Assembly: GCA_963737065.1 (NCBI GenBank)
Contig: CAVTRC010000001.1
Coordinates: 64,001-128,000 of the forward strand
DNA from: Candidatus Eremiobacteria bacterium
Lineage (GTDB): Bacteria; Vulcanimicrobiota; Vulcanimicrobiia; Vulcanimicrobiales; Vulcanimicrobiaceae
Length of the DNA: 64,000 nt
Direction of reading: 5' to 3'
Part shown: positions 1-8,050 of the stretch, in pieces
Position numbering within the stretch: position 1 is the first letter of the stretch
Layout of the letters: the number at the start of each line of letters is the position of its first letter
The notes under the pieces: model-generated
Database searches by the model: none
Told to the model about the DNA's origin: nothing
Seen by the model: only the letters and a program-made list of their open reading frames with translations
Program-made: the position numbers and the translations under genes

Positions 1-1901
1 TTCCCGGGAGACGATTACCGCGGCGATCCGCAGCGCGACGGACCCCGCTATGCTGGGCAAGCTCGTTCGTTCGATCGCGCCGAATCCACGCGCCCTGCTC
101 GATGCAGCCGCCGCGGCGATGCCGGCACATAGCCGGCTCGTTTGAAGAACTCCTCAAGCGCGGCGCGCGACACATCGTGCGCCCCACGTGCGGCCTGTGC
201 GGAGAGGCGGCGCTCTTAGAATACAAATTTCAAGACCGACGGATCTGCCGAGAATGCTACACGAAGAACCTCAAAGCGGAATGCTGCATCTGTAAACGGA
301 TGAAACAAATCTGCTCGCGCATCGATGGAAAGCCAAGGTGTGCTGCCTGTCACGTTCGCGATCCGCAAAACCACGAAATCTGCAGCATATGCAAGGCCCT
401 CGCCTATCCACGGGTGCGCCCCAACGGCCGACCAATCTGTCAGCTCTGTTACGAAGCGCCGAAGCACGTCTGCACAAACTGCGGAAAGCATGCCCCCGCG
501 CAGACGACGGAACCGCGAGTACTCTGCAAAGAGTGCTACGAAGTGATCGTCCTGGGAAAACCAGTGCGGGTCCTTCCACGCGCCAAGCACCGACCGATGC
601 GCCAGCGCGTCTGTGCAACCTGCGGTGAAAGACGGCTCTGTACCAACTTCCTTGGTGATCAGCCGAAATGCGCCGATTGCGCAGGGCGCCCGAAGCTAGA
701 ATGCGTTTCGTGCCGCAGGGAACGCCCGGTGCAGGCCATTTGGGAGATCGGTCCAGTGTGTAACACTTGCTATGACGGCAAGCGCGGTATGTGCAACCGC
801 TGCGATCATGAAGGATTGGTTATTAAGTATCGCCACAACGCAATTTGTCACGAATGCGCCGGAAAGCCGAGTCAGTCGAAATGCGGCGGCTGTGGCCATC
901 GTGAAGGGCTTTACGAACGCGGGCGCTGTGCTCGCTGTGTGCTCGACCGAAAGTTGACCGACTTGCTGCGGGACACGAGTGGGGAGTTCGCCAGCGAGCT
1001 GCTACCCCTAAAGAACCTACTTCTGGAACACCCGAGTCCTGAGTCGGTGCTCGGCTGGCTACGAAAGAGTCCAAAAGCGACTCACGTACTTGGAGCACTC
1101 GCCCGACGCGAATTGGAGGCGTCACATGTCGCATTCGACAATCTCGGCGGCGCGCCGTCCATTAGCTTCTTGCGATCTTTGTTGATGTCGAGCGCCGTTC
1201 TGCCGGAGCAGTCGCGTAACTTTTCGCTTCTGCTGCCATGGCTCGAACGTTTTCTCTCACGCTGCCCCGCGGCCCATCGACCCTTACTTTCAGCATTTGC
1301 GCAATGGCATGTCTTTCGACGACTACGCGACAAGGCGCGCTTTGGTGATATCACGGAGAGCTCCAACCGATGGGCCCGTGCGCGTTTGCGTTGCGCCGCC
1401 GTGTTCCTAAAATTTCTAGATAGCAAAGGTCATACCCTGAACACCTGTCAACAGGCCTTGCTTGATGAATGGCTAGCAGAGGGCTCGACGTCAGCGTACC
1501 TCGTGCGTGACTTCGTCTGCTGGGCATATCGCCGAAATCTGATGCGGCAACACGTTGTTCCGCTACGCAAAGTTAAGAAACCGGTCGACCCGATCGATGC
1601 GGATGCGCGGTGGGCGATCATTCGTCGCCTCATCACGGACGACACCATCCCCGTGGGTTTGCGCGTAGCCGGAGCATTAAACTTACTCTTTGGCCAGCAT
1701 GTGAGCAGAATCGTGCGCCTCACCGATGCCCATGTTATAAACATTGATGAAGAAACGTGCGTGGTGCTAGGCCGCGAACCAACTCCGCTTCCCCAACCCT
1801 TTGCTCGGCTGATCTTGGACCTCGTTAAAAGGCGGCGCAGTCAAAAGTGGAGTTGACCCGCTTCCGTGGAGACTTTCAATCTTACAGAGAAAGGTCTCCA
1901 T

Positions 1902-2213
1902 ATGGCAAAGCGCCCCACCTATCCGCCGGAATTCCGGCATAGGATCCTCGAGCTGGTTCGCTCCGGTCGCAGCGTGAATTCGATTGCCGCCGAGTTCCAA
2001 GTCGCGCGGCAATCGATCGTGAACTGGCTGAAGCAAGACGACGTTGATACGGGCCGCCGCGACGGCGGTTTAACAACGGACGAACGCAAAGAACTTGCGG
2101 CACTGCGCCGTGAAAATAAGCGCTTAAAACTCGAAGCGGAAATCCTGTCAAAAGCCGCGGCCTGGTTCGCTCGGGAAACGCACGCGGTTCCGAGCAAATC
2201 TTCGGATTCATAA
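1902..2213 (+). CDS. IS3 transposase OrfA (HTH)
   Basis: MAKRPTYPPEFRHRILELVRSG...EILSKAAAWFARE is typical IS3 OrfA. The AAAAG at 2150-2154 opens a stop-free -1 frame into OrfB. Confidence 0.9.
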   Translation: MAKRPTYPPEFRHRILELVRSGRSVNSIAAEFQVARQSIVNWLKQDDVDTGRRDGGLTTDERKELAALRRENKRLKLEAEILSKAAAWFARETHAVPSKSSDS

Positions 2214-2611
2214 AGGCGTACCAGGCCAACTATACGATTACGATGCTGTGTCATGTGCTCGACGTTTCCCCGAGCGGATACTACGCGTGGTGCAACCGAT
2301 CGCCGTCGAAGCGCCGCCAAGACGACATCGTTCTCGGCGATCAGATCGATGCGTTCTATCGGAAGTCGTATGGTATTTACGGCCGTCCGCGCTTGCATGC
2401 GGATCTTCGCGAAGCCGGCATTCGGATCTCCGGAAAGCGCCTTGCGCGGTTGATGCGCGAACGCGGAATTGTCGGCGTTTCTCGGAGGAAATCCACAGTC
2501 ACGACCATACGCGATCGGGATTCGCGTCCGGCGCCTGATCTCGTTGAGCGCAATTTCCAAGCCGATGGGCCTGACCAGCTTTGGGTCGCTGACATTACGT
2601 TGTATCTTGGA

Positions 2612-2785
2612 CCGACGCGGCGAACAACCGTCGCGAGGTGGGGATAGCACGGATATTACGTGAGGCAGCAACAGCCTGAGATGTAGATGTCGCACCCCAC
2701 TGCATTTTCAGCGCCGCAGGAGATCGGACGATAGCAAAGACGTTGCTCATCGAGCGAAGAGTCTGGATTTACAAGGCTGATCCGC
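2612..2785 (+). ncRNA. Putative bridge RNA of IS110 #1 (ends approximate)
   Basis: Non-coding left end with a 5' hairpin and two internal-loop modules. Target guides are ATATTACGT (2653-2661) and GATGTAG (2680-2686). Donor guides are ACGATAGC (2728-2735) and TTACAAG (2769-2775). Confidence 0.82.
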
Positions 2786-2821
2786 GGGTGGCGCGATTTC
2801 GATTTGAAATGTGGAGGCGCT

Positions 2822-3805
2822 GTGAAATTCATCGGGATTGATGTCTCTCGTGATAAGCTCGACTGCGCGGTAGTCGACGACTGTGGAACCGTTATTCAAC
2901 GATCGCGAGCATTTAAGAATAGCGCTGATGGCGTCGATGCGCTCCTGAAGTGGGTCGGAAAAATCGCCAGTAAGGGGCACGCGCGGTTTGTCATCGAGGC
3001 AACGGCAGCCTATCACGAGATGGCCTCACTGCGCCTTGCGAAGACCGGTGAATTCGTCGCAATCGTGAACCCATTTCACGTGCGTTCTTTAGCGCGCGGG
3101 CTAGCCATGCTCAGTAAGAGTGACGCGATTGATGCGCTCGTCCTTGCGCAATATGGGCGTCTTGCAAAGCTGCGCCGATGGGTACCGCCAGCTGCGCAGC
3201 TTGTTGATATTCAGGCTCTTTTGCTGCGGCTCGATGCGATTGAATCAGACCTCTTGCGTGAGCAGAATCGTCGCGAGCAGGCTGCAGCCAGAGAATCCGC
3301 GACGCTTGTGATTGGCTCGATTGACGCGAGTATCAAATTCCTAAAGCGTCAGCGGAAAAGCATCGAATTCGCGATCAGCAAATCGATTGAAACCGCTCCG
3401 GGTATCGCGGATGACGTCGAGCGCTTACGCTCGATCCCCGGCGTGGGCGAAAAGACAGCAAACCGCATGGCGACCATGCTGCGTATGCACGACTTTAAGT
3501 CGGCGCGTGAAGTGGCCGCCTTCTGCGGCCTCGTTCCGGTCGAGCATAAATCCGGAACGAGCGTCTATCGCAAGCCGCGACTCTCGAAGGCCGGCAACCC
3601 AAGAATGCGGGCGGCTCTATACATGGTTGCAGTCGTCGCCATGCGGTTGAACCCCGACGTCAAGGCGCTTTACGATCGACTCGTAGGACGCGGTAAAGCA
3701 AAAATGGCGGCTCTCGGTGCGTGCATGCGTAAGATCGTTCAGATATGTTTCGGCGTACTGAAGTCGGGAAAAACGTACGCCCCGCAGGCTGTTGTTAGAG
3801 CTTGA
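2822..3805 (+). CDS. IS110 DEDD recombinase/transposase
   Basis: GIDVS, IEAT and KSDAIDA (DEDD RuvC-like), SIPGVG, PVEHKSG (catalytic Ser region), SKAGN. GGAGG RBS precedes GTG 2822. Confidence 0.95.
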   Translation: MKFIGIDVSRDKLDCAVVDDCGTVIQRSRAFKNSADGVDALLKWVGKIASKGHARFVIEATAAYHEMASLRLAKTGEFVAIVNPFHVRSLARGLAMLSKSDAIDALVLAQYGRLAKLRRWVPPAAQLVDIQALLLRLDAIESDLLREQNRREQAAARESATLVIGSIDASIKFLKRQRKSIEFAISKSIETAPGIADDVERLRSIPGVGEKTANRMATMLRMHDFKSAREVAAFCGLVPVEHKSGTSVYRKPRLSKAGNPRMRAALYMVAVVAMRLNPDVKALYDRLVGRGKAKMAALGACMRKIVQICFGVLKSGKTYAPQAVVRA

Positions 3806-4679
3806 CTTCCCAGACGATATCTATATCCCGACCTGGGGTGGATTCGTATACCTCGCAATTGTGCTCGATGCTTACAGTCGTCGAGTCGTCGGCTGGGCAA
3901 CTGCTAATCACTTACGCACCGAACTTGTTCTGCAAGCGCTCAACTCATCAATCTATCGGCGACGGCCGGAAAACGTTATCCATCACTCGGATCAAGGCTG
4001 CCAATACACCTCAATCGCCTTCGGCCTGCGGTGTCGCGAAGCCAAGGTACGCCCGTCGATGGGTTCAGTCGGTGATGCATACGATAACGCGATGTGCGAG
4101 AGCTTCAACGCAACGCTCGAATGCGAACTACTTGCGCGAAGTTCGTTCAAAAGCCAGCGTGAAGCTGAACAAGCGATCTTCGCGTATATCGAGGGTTTCT
4201 ACAACCCGCATCGCCGGCATTCCGCAATCGGGTATCTCTCACCGAACAACTTCGAGCGCCGCATGAGTCATGCCGCTTGATGTCCAAGTCGCATTTCTCC
4301 GCGAAAGCGGGTCAACTCCAAAGCGCCCGAGGTTGGCATCAGGCGAATTCCTTTTGTTTCCGGGAAAGAACTACGGCAAGCCGACGACAACTGATGTGCT
4401 GAGTCATCGGTTGCAAAATATTGGAATCAGCGTACGTGCCGGCCGAAACGCTGCGCTGATGGAGATCGCGGCTAAGCTTCCCGCACCAGTGCTACGGGAT
4501 TTGCTCGGCATCCACATAAATGTGGCGGTAATTTGGAACCGCGCCGCAGGGCACAGCTATGCCAATTATGTCGGCGGTCTGAAGCGACAGAATGCTAAGA
4601 CTTAATCGGACAGTTGGCGAAGGTCGCATCGCATCCTGCCGCGTCACTGAGCGTGACGTCGGCGACGAAGGAGACGATC

Positions 4680-5714
4680 TTGACCACCGAACGCAAAGTC
4701 ATTCGTGCCAAAGTCGGCCTGCTCAACCTTGCAAAGCAGTTGGGGAACGTGCAGCAGGCCTGCAAGATGATGGGGTTTAGTCGCGATAGTTTCTATCGCT
4801 TCCAAGAGCTCTATGAAACCGGCGGTGAGGCCGCGCTCGCGGAAATCTCGCGCCGAAAACCGATCCTGAAGAACCGAATCGATCCAACGATCGAGGATGC
4901 GATCGTGACGCTCGCAATAGAACAGCCGGCGTTCGGCCAAGTGCGCGTCGCCAATGAACTCAAAAAACGTGCAATGACCGTTTCTCCCGCCGGCGTGCGC
5001 TGCGTTTGGCAGCGGCACGATCTTGAGACGATGAAGAAACGATTGAAAGCACTAGAAGCAAAAAGTGCACAGGAAGGTTTGGTTCTGACCGAAGCGCAGC
5101 TCGCAGCACTTGAGAAGGCGCAGAACGAGAAGGACGCGCACGGCGAGTTCGAGAGTGAATGCCCCGGTTATTGCGGCGCACAAGACACGTTCTACGTCGG
5201 CACGCTCAAAGGCGTCGGCCGTGTATATCAGCAGACCTTTGTCGACACGTATAGCAAAGTTGGATTCGCGAAGCTGTACCAGCAAAAGACGCCAATTACT
5301 GCAGCAGATCTGCTCAATGATCGGGTCATTCCATTCTTTGAAGAGCACGATATTCGCGTGAGCCGAATCCTCACTGATCGTGGAACCGAGTACTGCGGAG
5401 ACGTCCAGAAGCATCCTTACGAGTTGTACCTCGCAATCGAAGACATCGATCACACGCGCACCAAGGCAAAGAGCCCCCAAACAAACGGCATCGTTGAACG
5501 CCTTCACAAGACGATGCTTAACGAATTCTACCGCGTGGCATTCCGCAAGAAGATTTACCATACGGTCGACGAGCTGCAAGCCGATCTCGATGCATGGATG
5601 CGCGAGTACAACATAGAACGCACGCATCAAGGGCGCTGGTGTTACGGCAAGACGCCGATGCAGACATTTTTCGACAGCTTGGAACTCGCCAAGGAGAAGC
5701 TATTTGCAGCCTGA
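4680..5714 (+). CDS. IS481-family transposase
   Basis: N-terminal HTH ([29 protein letters not shown]) and DDE core QDTF / LTDRGTEY / [18 protein letters not shown] precedes TTG 4680. Confidence 0.9.

Positions 5715-6237: not shown

Positions 6238-8050
<1,813 letters not shown>

Follow-up and report, generated by a model that had tools for sequence, protein, structure and literature searches.

Judged by its sequence, the segment 2601-3822 of the window (the whole stretch of DNA analysed, 64,000 nucleotides of a Candidatus Eremiobacteria bacterium, in which position 1 is the first letter) is very probably an intact IS621-type insertion sequence (IS) of the IS110 family, whose bridge RNA is aimed at the first-Asp codons of IS3 transposases and whose mechanism we assign by homology to IS621. 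It adds to a known kind, since the mechanism is known and a comparable case, ISEc21, has already been published. What the locus and its relatives offer, at the level of sequence, is a complete natural set of recombinase, bridge RNA, donor ends and occupied target, together with empty targets in a relative, for an IS621-type element with a coding target. An earlier note on this DNA had read the element as an RNA-guided IS that targets IS3, and this reading is borne out by permutations of guides against flanks, none of which reached the cognate score, and by the insertion sites of the element's clade, nearly all of which lie at the same codons of IS3-type transposases.

Insertion site and host element

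The element begins with TGTATCTT (2601) and finishes with ACGATATCT (3822). The left flank terminates in GACATTACGT (2591-2600), the right flank opens with ATATCC (3823), and the two flanks, when joined by script, read ...QLWVADITYIPTWGGFVYLAIVL. The insertion had been placed in IS3 orfB at the codons for D-I-T-Y-I, and both the joined flanks and Pfam agree: orfB is split at GAC ATT ACG T|AT ATC, with HTH_21 on the left and rve (profile positions 18-101) on the right, such that the insertion falls at about rve profile position 17, within D-I-T|Y. We take the D of D-I-T-Y to be the first, catalytic Asp of the IS3 DDE triad (rve fold). The features of the site are as follows.

1848..4320, + strand: host IS3-family element, 1,251 bp once the insert is removed (Pfam HTH_Tnp_1, HTH_21 and rve; extent common to the second copy)
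1902..2213, + strand: IS3 orfA (HTH_Tnp_1; Pfam)
2243..2600, + strand: N-terminal part of IS3 orfB (HTH_21), ending ...LWVADIT and one further base, the first of the Tyr codon
2591..2600, + strand: left target and core, GACATTAC-GT (Asp-Ile-Thr codons and the T of Tyr)
2601..3822, + strand: IS110-family (IS621-type) element, 1,222 bp, intact (Pfam and sequence)
2601..2608, + strand: left end, which is the right donor, TGTATCTT (contains TATCTT 2603-2608)
3814..3822, + strand: right end, which is the left donor, ACGATAT plus core CT
3823..3829, + strand: right target ATATCCC (remainder of the Tyr codon, Ile, Pro)
3825..4280, + strand: C-terminal part of IS3 orfB (rve, rve_3 and rve_2; Pfam)

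The host IS3 has the ends TGGAGTTGACCC... and ...GGGTCAACTCCA and is bracketed by a 3-bp direct repeat, AAG (1845-1847 and 4321-4323). A second copy of the inserted element is present in the genome, 100% identical over 1,222 bp and at the same site of a second copy of the IS3, such that both of the two IS3 copies are occupied by identical elements, and neither an intact copy of the host IS3 nor an unoccupied cognate site remains in this genome. The two IS3 copies differ at 18 positions, 15 of which fall within one 52-bp patch, and the other three differences give a probability of about 0.04 for zero differences in the insert. The proposition that the two copies prove two independent insertions was weakened once these differences were mapped, and the pair is best regarded as weak evidence for two independent hits.

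The core dinucleotide of the target in the window is GT, versus the CT that is specified by the donor and by the right guide, and this is therefore a mismatched-core site. The right junction is always CT, while the left junction is GT in the window and GT, AT or CT within the clade; for GT, AT and CT cores that received a CT donor, the left junction retains the base of the target and the right junction that of the donor. The left end itself is exact in 42 of the 46 loci in which it was called and carries one mismatch in the other 4.

Recombinase and putative junction promoter

The open reading frame listed below encodes both domains of an IS110-family transposase, namely DEDD_Tnp_IS110 (PF01548, 1.2e-22, residues 4-150) and Transposase_20 (PF02371, 1.8e-25, residues 200-284), and it has full-length homology to the solved transposases of ISCro4 (5e-51) and IS621 (7e-48). 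The catalytic residues of IS621 are D11, E60, D102, D105 and S241 (Hiraizumi 2024, PMC11208158, cited here and below from part of the text). In a phmmer alignment against 8wt6, whose chain numbering we take to be offset by 2, these positions align with D7, E58, D101, D104 and S244 of the window protein.

2822..3805, + strand: recombinase CDS, 327 aa (GTG start with GGAGG before it; DEDD_Tnp_IS110 and Transposase_20)
3802..3807, + strand: TTGACT, -35 half of a putative junction promoter, overlapping the stop codon
2603..2608, + strand: TATCTT, -10 half of the putative junction promoter

Joining of the right end to the left end in a circle would bring TTGACT and TATCTT to a spacing of 17 bp, a figure given in the earlier note that the coordinates confirm. 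The same spacer is 17 bp in 48 of the 51 loci that possess a right end and 18 bp in the other three. No promoter-like site was called in the integrated state.

Bridge RNA and its guides

The non-coding region at the 5′ end of the element comprises 221 nt and can be laid out in the arrangement of a bridge RNA.

2616..2635, + strand: 5′ stem-loop (minimum free energy fold; the helix of the relatives at this place has 6 of 7 pairs compensatory; the row of the window is poorly aligned here)
2635..2703, + strand: target-binding loop module (outer stem 2635-2651/2688-2703; inner hairpin 2663-2666/2674-2677)
2652..2661, + strand: left target guide GAUAUUACGU (reads as the top strand of the target and pairs with its bottom strand)
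2680..2688, + strand: right target guide GAUGUAG (2680-2686), then AU (2687-2688) where IS621 has its handshake guide
2722..2782, + strand: donor-binding loop module (outer stem 2722-2725/2779-2782; inner hairpin 2738-2746/2754-2764)
2728..2735, + strand: left donor guide ACGAUAGC (faces the right end ACGATATC, 7/8)
2771..2777, + strand: right donor guide ACAAG, which is complementary to CT+TGT of the circle junction; GC comes next, in the handshake position

The structure is supported by comparison. From 37 distinct non-coding regions of relatives a consensus of 39 pairs was obtained, in which 95.4% of cells are paired (versus 35-48% when the partners are slid) and compensatory changes occur at 29 of the 39 pairs, a number reached by none of 500 shuffles; the window sequence forms 33 of the 39 pairs. 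All four guide segments are unpaired in this covariation-supported consensus and lie in its internal loops, whereas the earlier note would have been contradicted by guides that fall in paired stems. Folded singly, the sequence does no better than shuffles (z = -1.27), and in that fold the two target guides pair together, so it is the comparative structure alone that supports the loops. A search of Rfam 15 over 1800-4400 gave no family match at E up to 10, save an unrelated 21-nt pseudoknot model at E 4.9 (Rfam 15 may hold no bridge-RNA model), and the non-coding region had no blastn match in E. coli genomes.

The left target guide is found where it had been reported, as GATATTACGT at 2652-2661, and matches the left target at 9 of 10 positions, by nine Watson-Crick pairs and one U-G wobble. 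The sole difference, as claimed, is synonymous and G:U compatible: at the third base of the Asp codon, U faces G. By simple arithmetic, a match of at least 9/10 to the left target anywhere in 221 nt has a chance expectation of about 0.006. The right target guide, GATGTAG after a small hairpin, was likewise located (2680-2686), and it pairs with the top-strand CT+ATATC with one G-T wobble, such that both target guides show wobble. The AU that follows is complementary to donor positions 6-7 (AT), in keeping with the handshake-guide concept developed for IS621 (Hiraizumi 2024, PMC11208158), and the handshake base of the donor loop matches just one of the two target bases.

The second loop holds the reported ACGATAGC and TTACAAG, at 2728-2735 and 2769-2775 respectively. 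Within the left donor guide, position 7 is a mismatched G in nine of nine tabulated clade members, and the mismatch is probably tolerated, given that all nine carry it; position 4 covaries with the right end, being A in the window and in its near relative L015 and G in the other clade members. On the right side, ACAAGG is invariant in 37 of 37 relatives. Of the IS621 sequences named in the earlier note, the donor ACAGTATCTTGTAT is as given in Supplementary Table 2 of Durrant 2024 (PMC11208160, cited here and below from part of the paper and its supplements), while the guide segment TTTACAAGGCTG occurs in the BridgeRNADesigner example output of that paper, and the wild-type bridge RNA of the same table departs from it at two positions.

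Guides and targets across relatives

If the loops are guides, they should follow the flanks of each element, and covariation of guides with targets had been named as a check. Over the 7 non-core nucleotides of the left guide, the mean number of matches is 5.83 for cognate and 2.81 for non-cognate combinations (40 unique pairs of 45), and over 7 nt of the right guide it is 4.69 versus 2.82 (35 unique pairs of 38); the cognate score was matched by 0 of 10,000 permutations, left and right alike. Left-guide pairs with three or fewer of seven matches number 4 of 40, and these include L003, which has an extra T at the junction. The guide carries ATT, ATC, TTC or ATG in step with the codon for Ile, Phe or Met in the target, and in transposase targets each non-core mismatch of the left guide is a U opposite G at a synonymous codon position. 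The sites of the homologous copies thus match their own guides; insertion at sites unrelated to the guides or to IS3 had been listed as evidence that would speak against RNA guidance.

The window element belongs to a clade of 13 loci with 12 distinct proteins, which occupies one side of a 100/100 branch in a tree of 49 rows and whose left guide carries the signature GAY-NTN-ACK-T. Of the 13 loci, eleven interrupt an IS3-type transposase at D-x-T|Y; the remaining two lie in an IS6-type transposase and in an unrelated gene that offers a look-alike site. The IS3-type call rests on Pfam rve or HTH_21 in nine of the eleven (the window and 8 others) and, for L016 and L017, on flank translations identical to that of L015 over the residues shown. 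The IS6-type host gene (DDE_Tnp_IS240, 1.8e-28) is represented by a single contig without a left end. The look-alike locus, L023, lies in a gene without a Pfam match, at a site that agrees with the guide in all but 1 of 10 positions, and its element is near-identical to L018, which sits in an IS3. By eye, GAY-NTN-ACN-T was not seen in the flanks of the 37 proteins outside the clade.

Within the clade the recombinases have diverged to 54-59% identity. The nearest relatives of the window element, L015-L017 (70-74% at the amino acid level), are hosted by related IS3s (78% aa), and these four may therefore descend from one insertion; other clade members have host IS3s that share only 46% identity with that of the window. 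Empty sites are seen beside a filled one in the L004 genome, in which five uninterrupted paralogous IS3 copies read GACTTCACGT|ACGTCTCG and the occupied copy has exactly the element between GACTTCACGT and ACGTCTCG, inserted precisely and with no duplication at a target core of GT from a donor core of CT. One of the six cognate IS3 copies in that genome is thus filled.

The clade is sparse. No members were found among 400 other genomes of the window's own phylum or among 400 genomes of the order of L004, no relatives were found in viral contigs, and a tblastn search against plasmids returned 1,234 records that were all below 60% identity (best 43%), of which the three inspected were distant. 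The clade guide signature was not found in the part of the Durrant 2024 supplements that was searched (PMC11208160), which is no proof of absence, and the donor junction of the wider subfamily occurs at least 77 times in the bridge-RNA alignment of supplementary file 4 of the same paper.

Proposed mechanism and competing explanations

By homology to IS621, the element would excise as a circle in which the right end is joined to the left end, creating a candidate sigma-70 promoter (TTGACT-17 bp-TATCTT) that would drive the recombinase gene and a bridge RNA of about 180 nt. The donor-binding loop would then hold the circle junction ACGATAT-CT-TGTAT, the target-binding loop would hold GAY-ATH-AC-NT-AYATC, encoding D-I-T-Y-I, and the DEDD/Ser recombinase would swap strands at the core T. 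The target is the set of codons surrounding the first Asp of the IS3-family DDE triad, and insertion splits orfB there. The clade has retained this specificity while its recombinases diverged, synonymous variation in the target being absorbed by G-U wobble and by a lax core position 1, the third base of the Thr codon. We infer RNA expression, circle formation, catalysis and current activity of the element by analogy with IS621.

It is improbable, in our estimation, that the elements merely look intact and are in fact silent relics, their cognate targets exhausted and their promoter existing only in the circle. The genome does lack a free cognate site, the integrated configuration has no called promoter-like site, and the left donor guide mismatch and the imperfect handshake position point the same way. 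Yet the two copies do not differ at any of their 1,222 bp and keep an open reading frame with all catalytic residues, and the donor-guide mismatch, present in all nine tabulated clade members, is probably tolerated.

We give still less credence to the idea that the clade is a host-beneficial anti-transposon device, a domesticated defence rather than a selfish element, kept because knockout of IS3 and IS6 protects the genome. The insertion removes the catalytic core from the first Asp onward, both IS3 copies here are disabled, and a second IS110 lineage, ISEc21, likewise strikes IS3 catalytic codons (Siddiquee et al. 2024, PMC11187229, cited here and below from part of the text). Nevertheless, the features of a mobile IS (ends, junction promoter, donor loop and its own recombinase) are all kept, the clade is rare and patchy, just one in six cognate IS3 copies is occupied in the L004 genome, and a conserved multi-copy site accounts for the choice of target without any host benefit.

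Hardly credible is the notion of a passive passenger, an ancestral IS3::IS110 composite copied and inherited so that the shared site reflects descent and not targeting: it would suit the identical inserts at one site in both genome copies, the mere three differences between the IS3 copies outside the 52-bp patch and the related IS3s that house L015-L017, but it leaves unexplained both the RNA loops that spell the flanks and the codon covariation of guide and target, and it sits poorly with near-identical elements in an IS3 and an unrelated look-alike gene (L018 and L023), with hosts only 46% identical elsewhere in the clade, with five empty and one filled copy of one IS3 in the L004 genome, and with the lack of an intact host IS3 here to mobilise a composite.

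For the RNA-guided IS that we prefer, the likely rationale is that a site that is conserved, multi-copy, mobile and harmless to the host when disrupted serves as a safe harbour that also travels. A more ambitious proposal, which we regard as possible and on balance doubtful, is that this monophyletic IS621-type clade is a hyperparasite of DDE transposons, its target loop locked on first-Asp D-x-T-Y codons even as the recombinase diverged to about 55% identity, that reaches both IS3 and IS6, reads through synonymous variation and measurably lowers IS3/IS6 activity. If that were true then, with ISEc21 at the second D, DDE catalytic codons would have been chosen at least two times independently as RNA-guided landing sites. 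If the IS6-type insertion, seen at one locus, proved general, it would be of interest, since IS6 elements form a major class of mobile DNA. Because variation of the target is confined to changes that the genetic code permits, the clade also constitutes a natural experiment on mismatch rules.

Comparison with known systems

The window protein shares with IS621 and ISCro4 (PDB 8wt6 and 9t56) the domain pair and the five catalytic residues, with homology over the full length. As in IS621, the RNA comprises a 5′ stem-loop and two binding loops, one for the target and one for the donor, whose guides follow the same order and strand sense, and in both elements a promoter, putative in the window, is split over the circle junction. 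The donors agree at 12 of 14 positions (ACGATAT-CT-TGTAT in the window, ACAGTAT-CT-TGTAT in IS621). In both, G-T wobble is tolerated in the natural target and core position 1 is laxer than the T, the lesser strictness of core position 1 having been published for IS621 (PMC11208160, PMC11208158). The two differ in their natural target, which is a REP sequence for IS621 and a protein-coding motif of another transposon for the window element. Moreover, unlike in IS621, core position 1 of the left guide is G or U in the window clade and not C, and insertions occur at GT, AT and CT cores, with the caveat that the window element is known from sequence alone.

Several IS110/IS1111 elements also target conserved, repeated sites on mobile DNA. 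IS4321 and IS5075 target the terminal repeats of Tn21-type transposons. Others target the attC sites of integron cassettes or REP sequences (PMC11187229). These targets are non-coding and structural, whereas the window element targets coding sequence whose variation obeys the genetic code.

The closest parallel is with ISEc21 and ISMch6 (Siddiquee et al. 2024, PMC11187229), which are likewise IS110-family elements with a non-coding region upstream, an RNA complementary to both target strands and a target in the catalytic-domain codons of IS3-family transposases, and in which a circle forms a junction promoter and insertion occurs without target duplication. [quoted passage not shown] The ISEc21 RNA is described as a seekRNA of 58-74 nt, a description that sets the window element apart from it, and the transposases of the ISEc21 cluster measure 345-385 aa versus 315-330 aa in the IS621/IS492 branch (PMC11187229); the window protein has 327 aa. 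A second lineage with a second motif beside ISEc21 suggests that DDE catalytic codons are recurrent landing sites.

The nested insertion

The IS110-family element of the IS621 type lies inside orfB of an IS3-family element, and every sequence statement of the earlier note is confirmed, including the last five entries here:

1848–4320: host IS3-family element, with ends TGGAGTTGACCC... and ...GGGTCAACTCCA and a 3-bp AAG repeat on each side (1845–1847 and 4321–4323)
orfA of the host IS3: HTH_Tnp_1 (Pfam)
orfB of the host IS3: HTH_21, then rve, rve_3 and rve_2 (Pfam)
2601–3822: IS110-family element
2822: GTG start, preceded by GGAGG, of the 327-aa recombinase CDS
2652–2661: GATATTACGT, matching the left flank at 9 of 10 positions
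2680–2686: GATGTAG
2728–2735: ACGATAGC
2769–2775: TTACAAG
3802–3807 and 2603–2608: TTGACT and TATCTT, 17 bp apart when the ends are joined

The orfB gene is interrupted after GAC ATT ACG T by 1,222 bp and restarts as AT ATC CCG; with the flanks joined, its frame reads ...LWVADITYIPTWGGFVYL..., and positions 18–101 of the rve profile lie directly to the right of the insertion. The Asp of the W-x-x-D-x-T-Y block at this site is presumably the first of the three catalytic residues (DDE triad) of the rve fold. The IS3 itself breaks a long ORF (102–1856 and 4324–4605), which makes a three-level nest: IS110 within IS3 within a gene. The upstream part of that ORF (584 aa) is Cys-rich, with many CxxC pairs, and its frame goes on for about 95 aa beyond the IS3; neither part has a Pfam match. 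Neighbouring mobile-element genes at 4614–5714 and 6238–7032 (minus strand) include an HTH_29 plus rve transposase (Pfam) and an ORF whose GPSGVGKT motif suggests, by eye, an IstB-like ATPase; the region is an IS cluster.

The recombinase and the element ends

The recombinase, whose relatives have ATG at the alignment column of its GTG, carries DEDD_Tnp_IS110 and Transposase_20 domains (Pfam). Residues 2–319 match the solved transposases of ISCro4 (5e-51) and IS621 (7e-48), and D7, E58, D101, D104 and S244 correspond in the alignment to the catalytic residues of IS621 given in the available text of Hiraizumi 2024 (PMC11208158).

The likeness to IS621 stated in the earlier note holds in part in the supplements of Durrant 2024 (PMC11208160): the wild-type IS621 donor ACAGTATCTTGTAT and the junction here, ACGATATCTTGTAT, are near-identical (12/14); the donor-loop string given in the note comes from a designer example, and two positions are different in the wild-type RNA of Supplementary Table 2.

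For the integrated state of the element, a promoter scan calls no promoter-like site. By eye, within 2581–2608, Leu-Trp-Val codons give TTGGGT 16 bp upstream of TATCTT, a pair that the scan leaves uncalled and that might permit weak bridge-RNA transcription from the integrated copy.

Relatives were drawn from one scan of species-representative genomes (12 loci) and one of metagenome contigs (50 loci), and 60 loci were analysed: the window, the full metagenome set and nine loci of the genome set. The left end TGTATCTT is present in 46 of the 60, four of these with one mismatch at most, and the right end, TTGA(C/T)N-N15-16 ending G-N-TATCT, in 51, of which 48 have a 17-bp junction promoter spacer and three an 18-bp one.

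Predicted structure of the bridge RNA

An alignment of 37 distinct non-coding regions yields, by RNAalifold, a stem-loop at the 5′ side, a long stem that has both an internal loop and an inner hairpin, a linker, and a second such stem. In the consensus pairs 95.4% of cells are paired, as against 35–48% when partners are slid by 1–3 columns, and 29 of the 39 pairs have changes on both sides; none of 500 shuffles reached the observed values. The variable segments flanking the first inner hairpin are unpaired, as are the conserved segments GGACG(G/A)TAGC and ATNNACAAGG flanking the second. The guides lie outside paired stems in a covariation-backed consensus of 37 relatives.

The window sequence makes 33 of the 39 consensus pairs; five of the six misses fall in the 5′ stem-loop, where the window row aligns poorly and where the window's own fold has a hairpin. 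The single-sequence fold of the window was no better than shuffles (z = -1.27) and paired the two target guides together; on its own it would mislead about the loops.

Guides follow their flanks

When guides were picked by alignment column rather than by best match, the seven non-core bases of the left guide matched cognate flanks at a mean of 5.83 positions versus 2.81 for non-cognate flanks (40 unique pairs of 45), and the seven bases of the right guide at 4.69 versus 2.82 (35 unique pairs of 38). No permutation in 10,000 reached the cognate matching on either side, so that homologous copies do not sit at sites unrelated to their guides. Four of the 40 left-guide pairs have three matches or fewer, among them locus L003, where an additional T sits at the junction; left-end calls are irregular at L011 and L045.

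A clade directed at D-x-T-Y codons

At 13 loci (the window, L003, L004, L005, L007, L015–L021 and L023) a left guide GAY-NTN-ACK-T follows GCACG, and a branch with 100/100 support separates the 12 distinct proteins of this clade from the rest in a tree of 49 rows, built after removal of eight rows that had stops or were short and of three duplicates. In line with the IS3-codon enrichment that the earlier note proposed to test for, 11 of the 13 loci sit at D-x-T|Y of IS3-type genes. Pfam confirms rve right of the insert in the window, L003, L004, L015, L018, L019, L020 and L021, and HTH_21 to the left in L004, L005 and L015; L016 and L017 are IS3-type by flank translations equal to those of L015 over the residues shown. 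The L007 contig has the right end alone, reading Y-M-K-I-S-G-Q-W-K-stop in a frame that runs on into a DDE_Tnp_IS240 domain (1.8e-28); its host gene is a predicted IS6-type transposase gene carrying a stop. L023 (1268–1280, 2502–2510), whose element is near-identical to that of L018, lies in a gene without a Pfam match; the insertion site, GACTACACGT|ACGTCCC, differs from the element's own guide by one mismatch. This site is a natural off-target or alternative target, and it argues that a nucleic-acid sequence, rather than a transposase gene as such, would be what is recognised.

The left junction of L003 (130–150) reads GACATCACAT-T-TGTAT, one T more than in other clade members, and its joined host transposase is therefore off frame by one; a post-insertion indel, an imprecise event or an assembly error may account for it.

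Covariation, which the earlier note also proposed to test for, is seen in the middle guide codon, which tracks the target codon: Ile targets go with ATT or ATC, Phe with TTC and Met with ATG. In permutations confined to the clade, the observed sum was reached 46 times in 10,000 for the left guide and 442 for the right. At transposase targets all four non-core left-guide mismatches (window, L015, L018, L020) place U against G in the third base of a codon, and the right guide has two mismatches within its first five bases (window, L004), G-T and U-G. The last base of the Thr codon serves as core position 1; guides have G or U there, and targets have C in L005, L015, L018, L020 and L021, G in the window, L004 and L023, and A in L003. 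The right junction is CT throughout. The left donor guide tracks the right end (ACGAUAG/ACGATAT in the window and L015, ACGGUAG/ACGGTAT in the others), and in each of the nine tabulated clade members the G at guide position 7 is mismatched.

Empty sites and probable repeated insertion

In the genome with L004 (G401), the host IS3 also has five paralogous copies without an insert (L075–L079), 97–99% identical over a 301-base left-flank query. The sequence is GACTTCACGT|ACGTCTCG in every one of the five, and in the occupied copy the element lies exactly between the halves. These empty sites show that insertion was precise and without duplication, that the target core is GT and the donor core CT, and that the left junction retains the target's base and the right junction the donor's. 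In IS621, according to the available text of PMC11208160 and PMC11208158, the core T is nearly invariant and the C less conserved, and GT, AT and TT cores allow recombination. That five of the six cognate IS3 copies in G401 are unoccupied despite a perfect 10/10 left-guide match suggests low activity or recent arrival.

In the window's genome there are two 100% identical copies of the element, at separate loci, each at the same position in an IS3 copy of its own; no uninterrupted copy of the host IS3 and no other free cognate site was found there. The IS3 copies (the second is L001) have 18 differences, 15 of them in a 52-bp orfA patch (1958–2009) that has the look of gene conversion by a diverged IS3. 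Because the remaining three give a probability of only about 0.04 for an insert without differences, two independent insertions are likely, short of proof. Across 400 other genomes of the phylum (E up to 1e-60) the element was not found. The nearest relatives, L015–L017 (70–74% aa), have a host IS3 78% identical to the window's and may share one ancestral insertion with it; the L004 host IS3 is only 46% identical.

Relation to known systems

Known here from sequence, the element would work as IS621 does, agreeing with it in the sequence-level tests of membership with the sole exception of core position 1, at which its target and donor are different. With the sequence features directly seen, each step can be proposed by homology with IS621: the element would circularise; the circle junction would build the TTGACT-17-TATCTT promoter; bridge RNA and recombinase would then be expressed; the donor loop would bind the junction and the target loop GAY-ATH-AC-NT-AYATC; and strand exchange would adjoin the core T.

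The guides match their flanks and most of the clade sits at IS3 D-x-T|Y, which supports the interpretation in the earlier note of an RNA-guided element directed at IS3 codons, but the idea is less novel than was assumed. It has a published precedent in ISEc21, which belongs to the IS110 family and has a non-coding region upstream, and for which the available text of Siddiquee et al. 2024 (PMC11187229) reports RNA-dependent, reprogrammable transposition. By that description ISEc21 would be set apart: its cluster has transposases of 345–385 aa (315–330 aa in the IS621/IS492 branch), as against 327 aa here, and its target is around the second D of the IS3 DDE triad rather than the first. In the literature available, 2026 preprints included, no account of an IS110 element inserted at the first-D motif was found, nor was the clade guide signature in the accessible Durrant 2024 supplements (PMC11208160). 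What deserves note here is the clade-wide coding-motif target.

The donor junction of the wider subfamily occurs at least 77 times in the accessible part of the Durrant 2024 bridge-RNA alignment (PMC11208160), and the subfamily is therefore already in a published catalogue. Its sister clades (L006, L022, L024–L061) have donor ends as in the clade and left guides ending CCCU or UCCU; their sites are GC-rich, end in CCCT or TCCT followed by ACA or CCCC, and are possibly repeated extragenic sequences. At two metagenome loci (L045, 1268–1290; L053, 1–24) there is a local duplication of the left end, in which eight bases separate two left-end-like motifs; in L053 the second of these is TGTATTTT.
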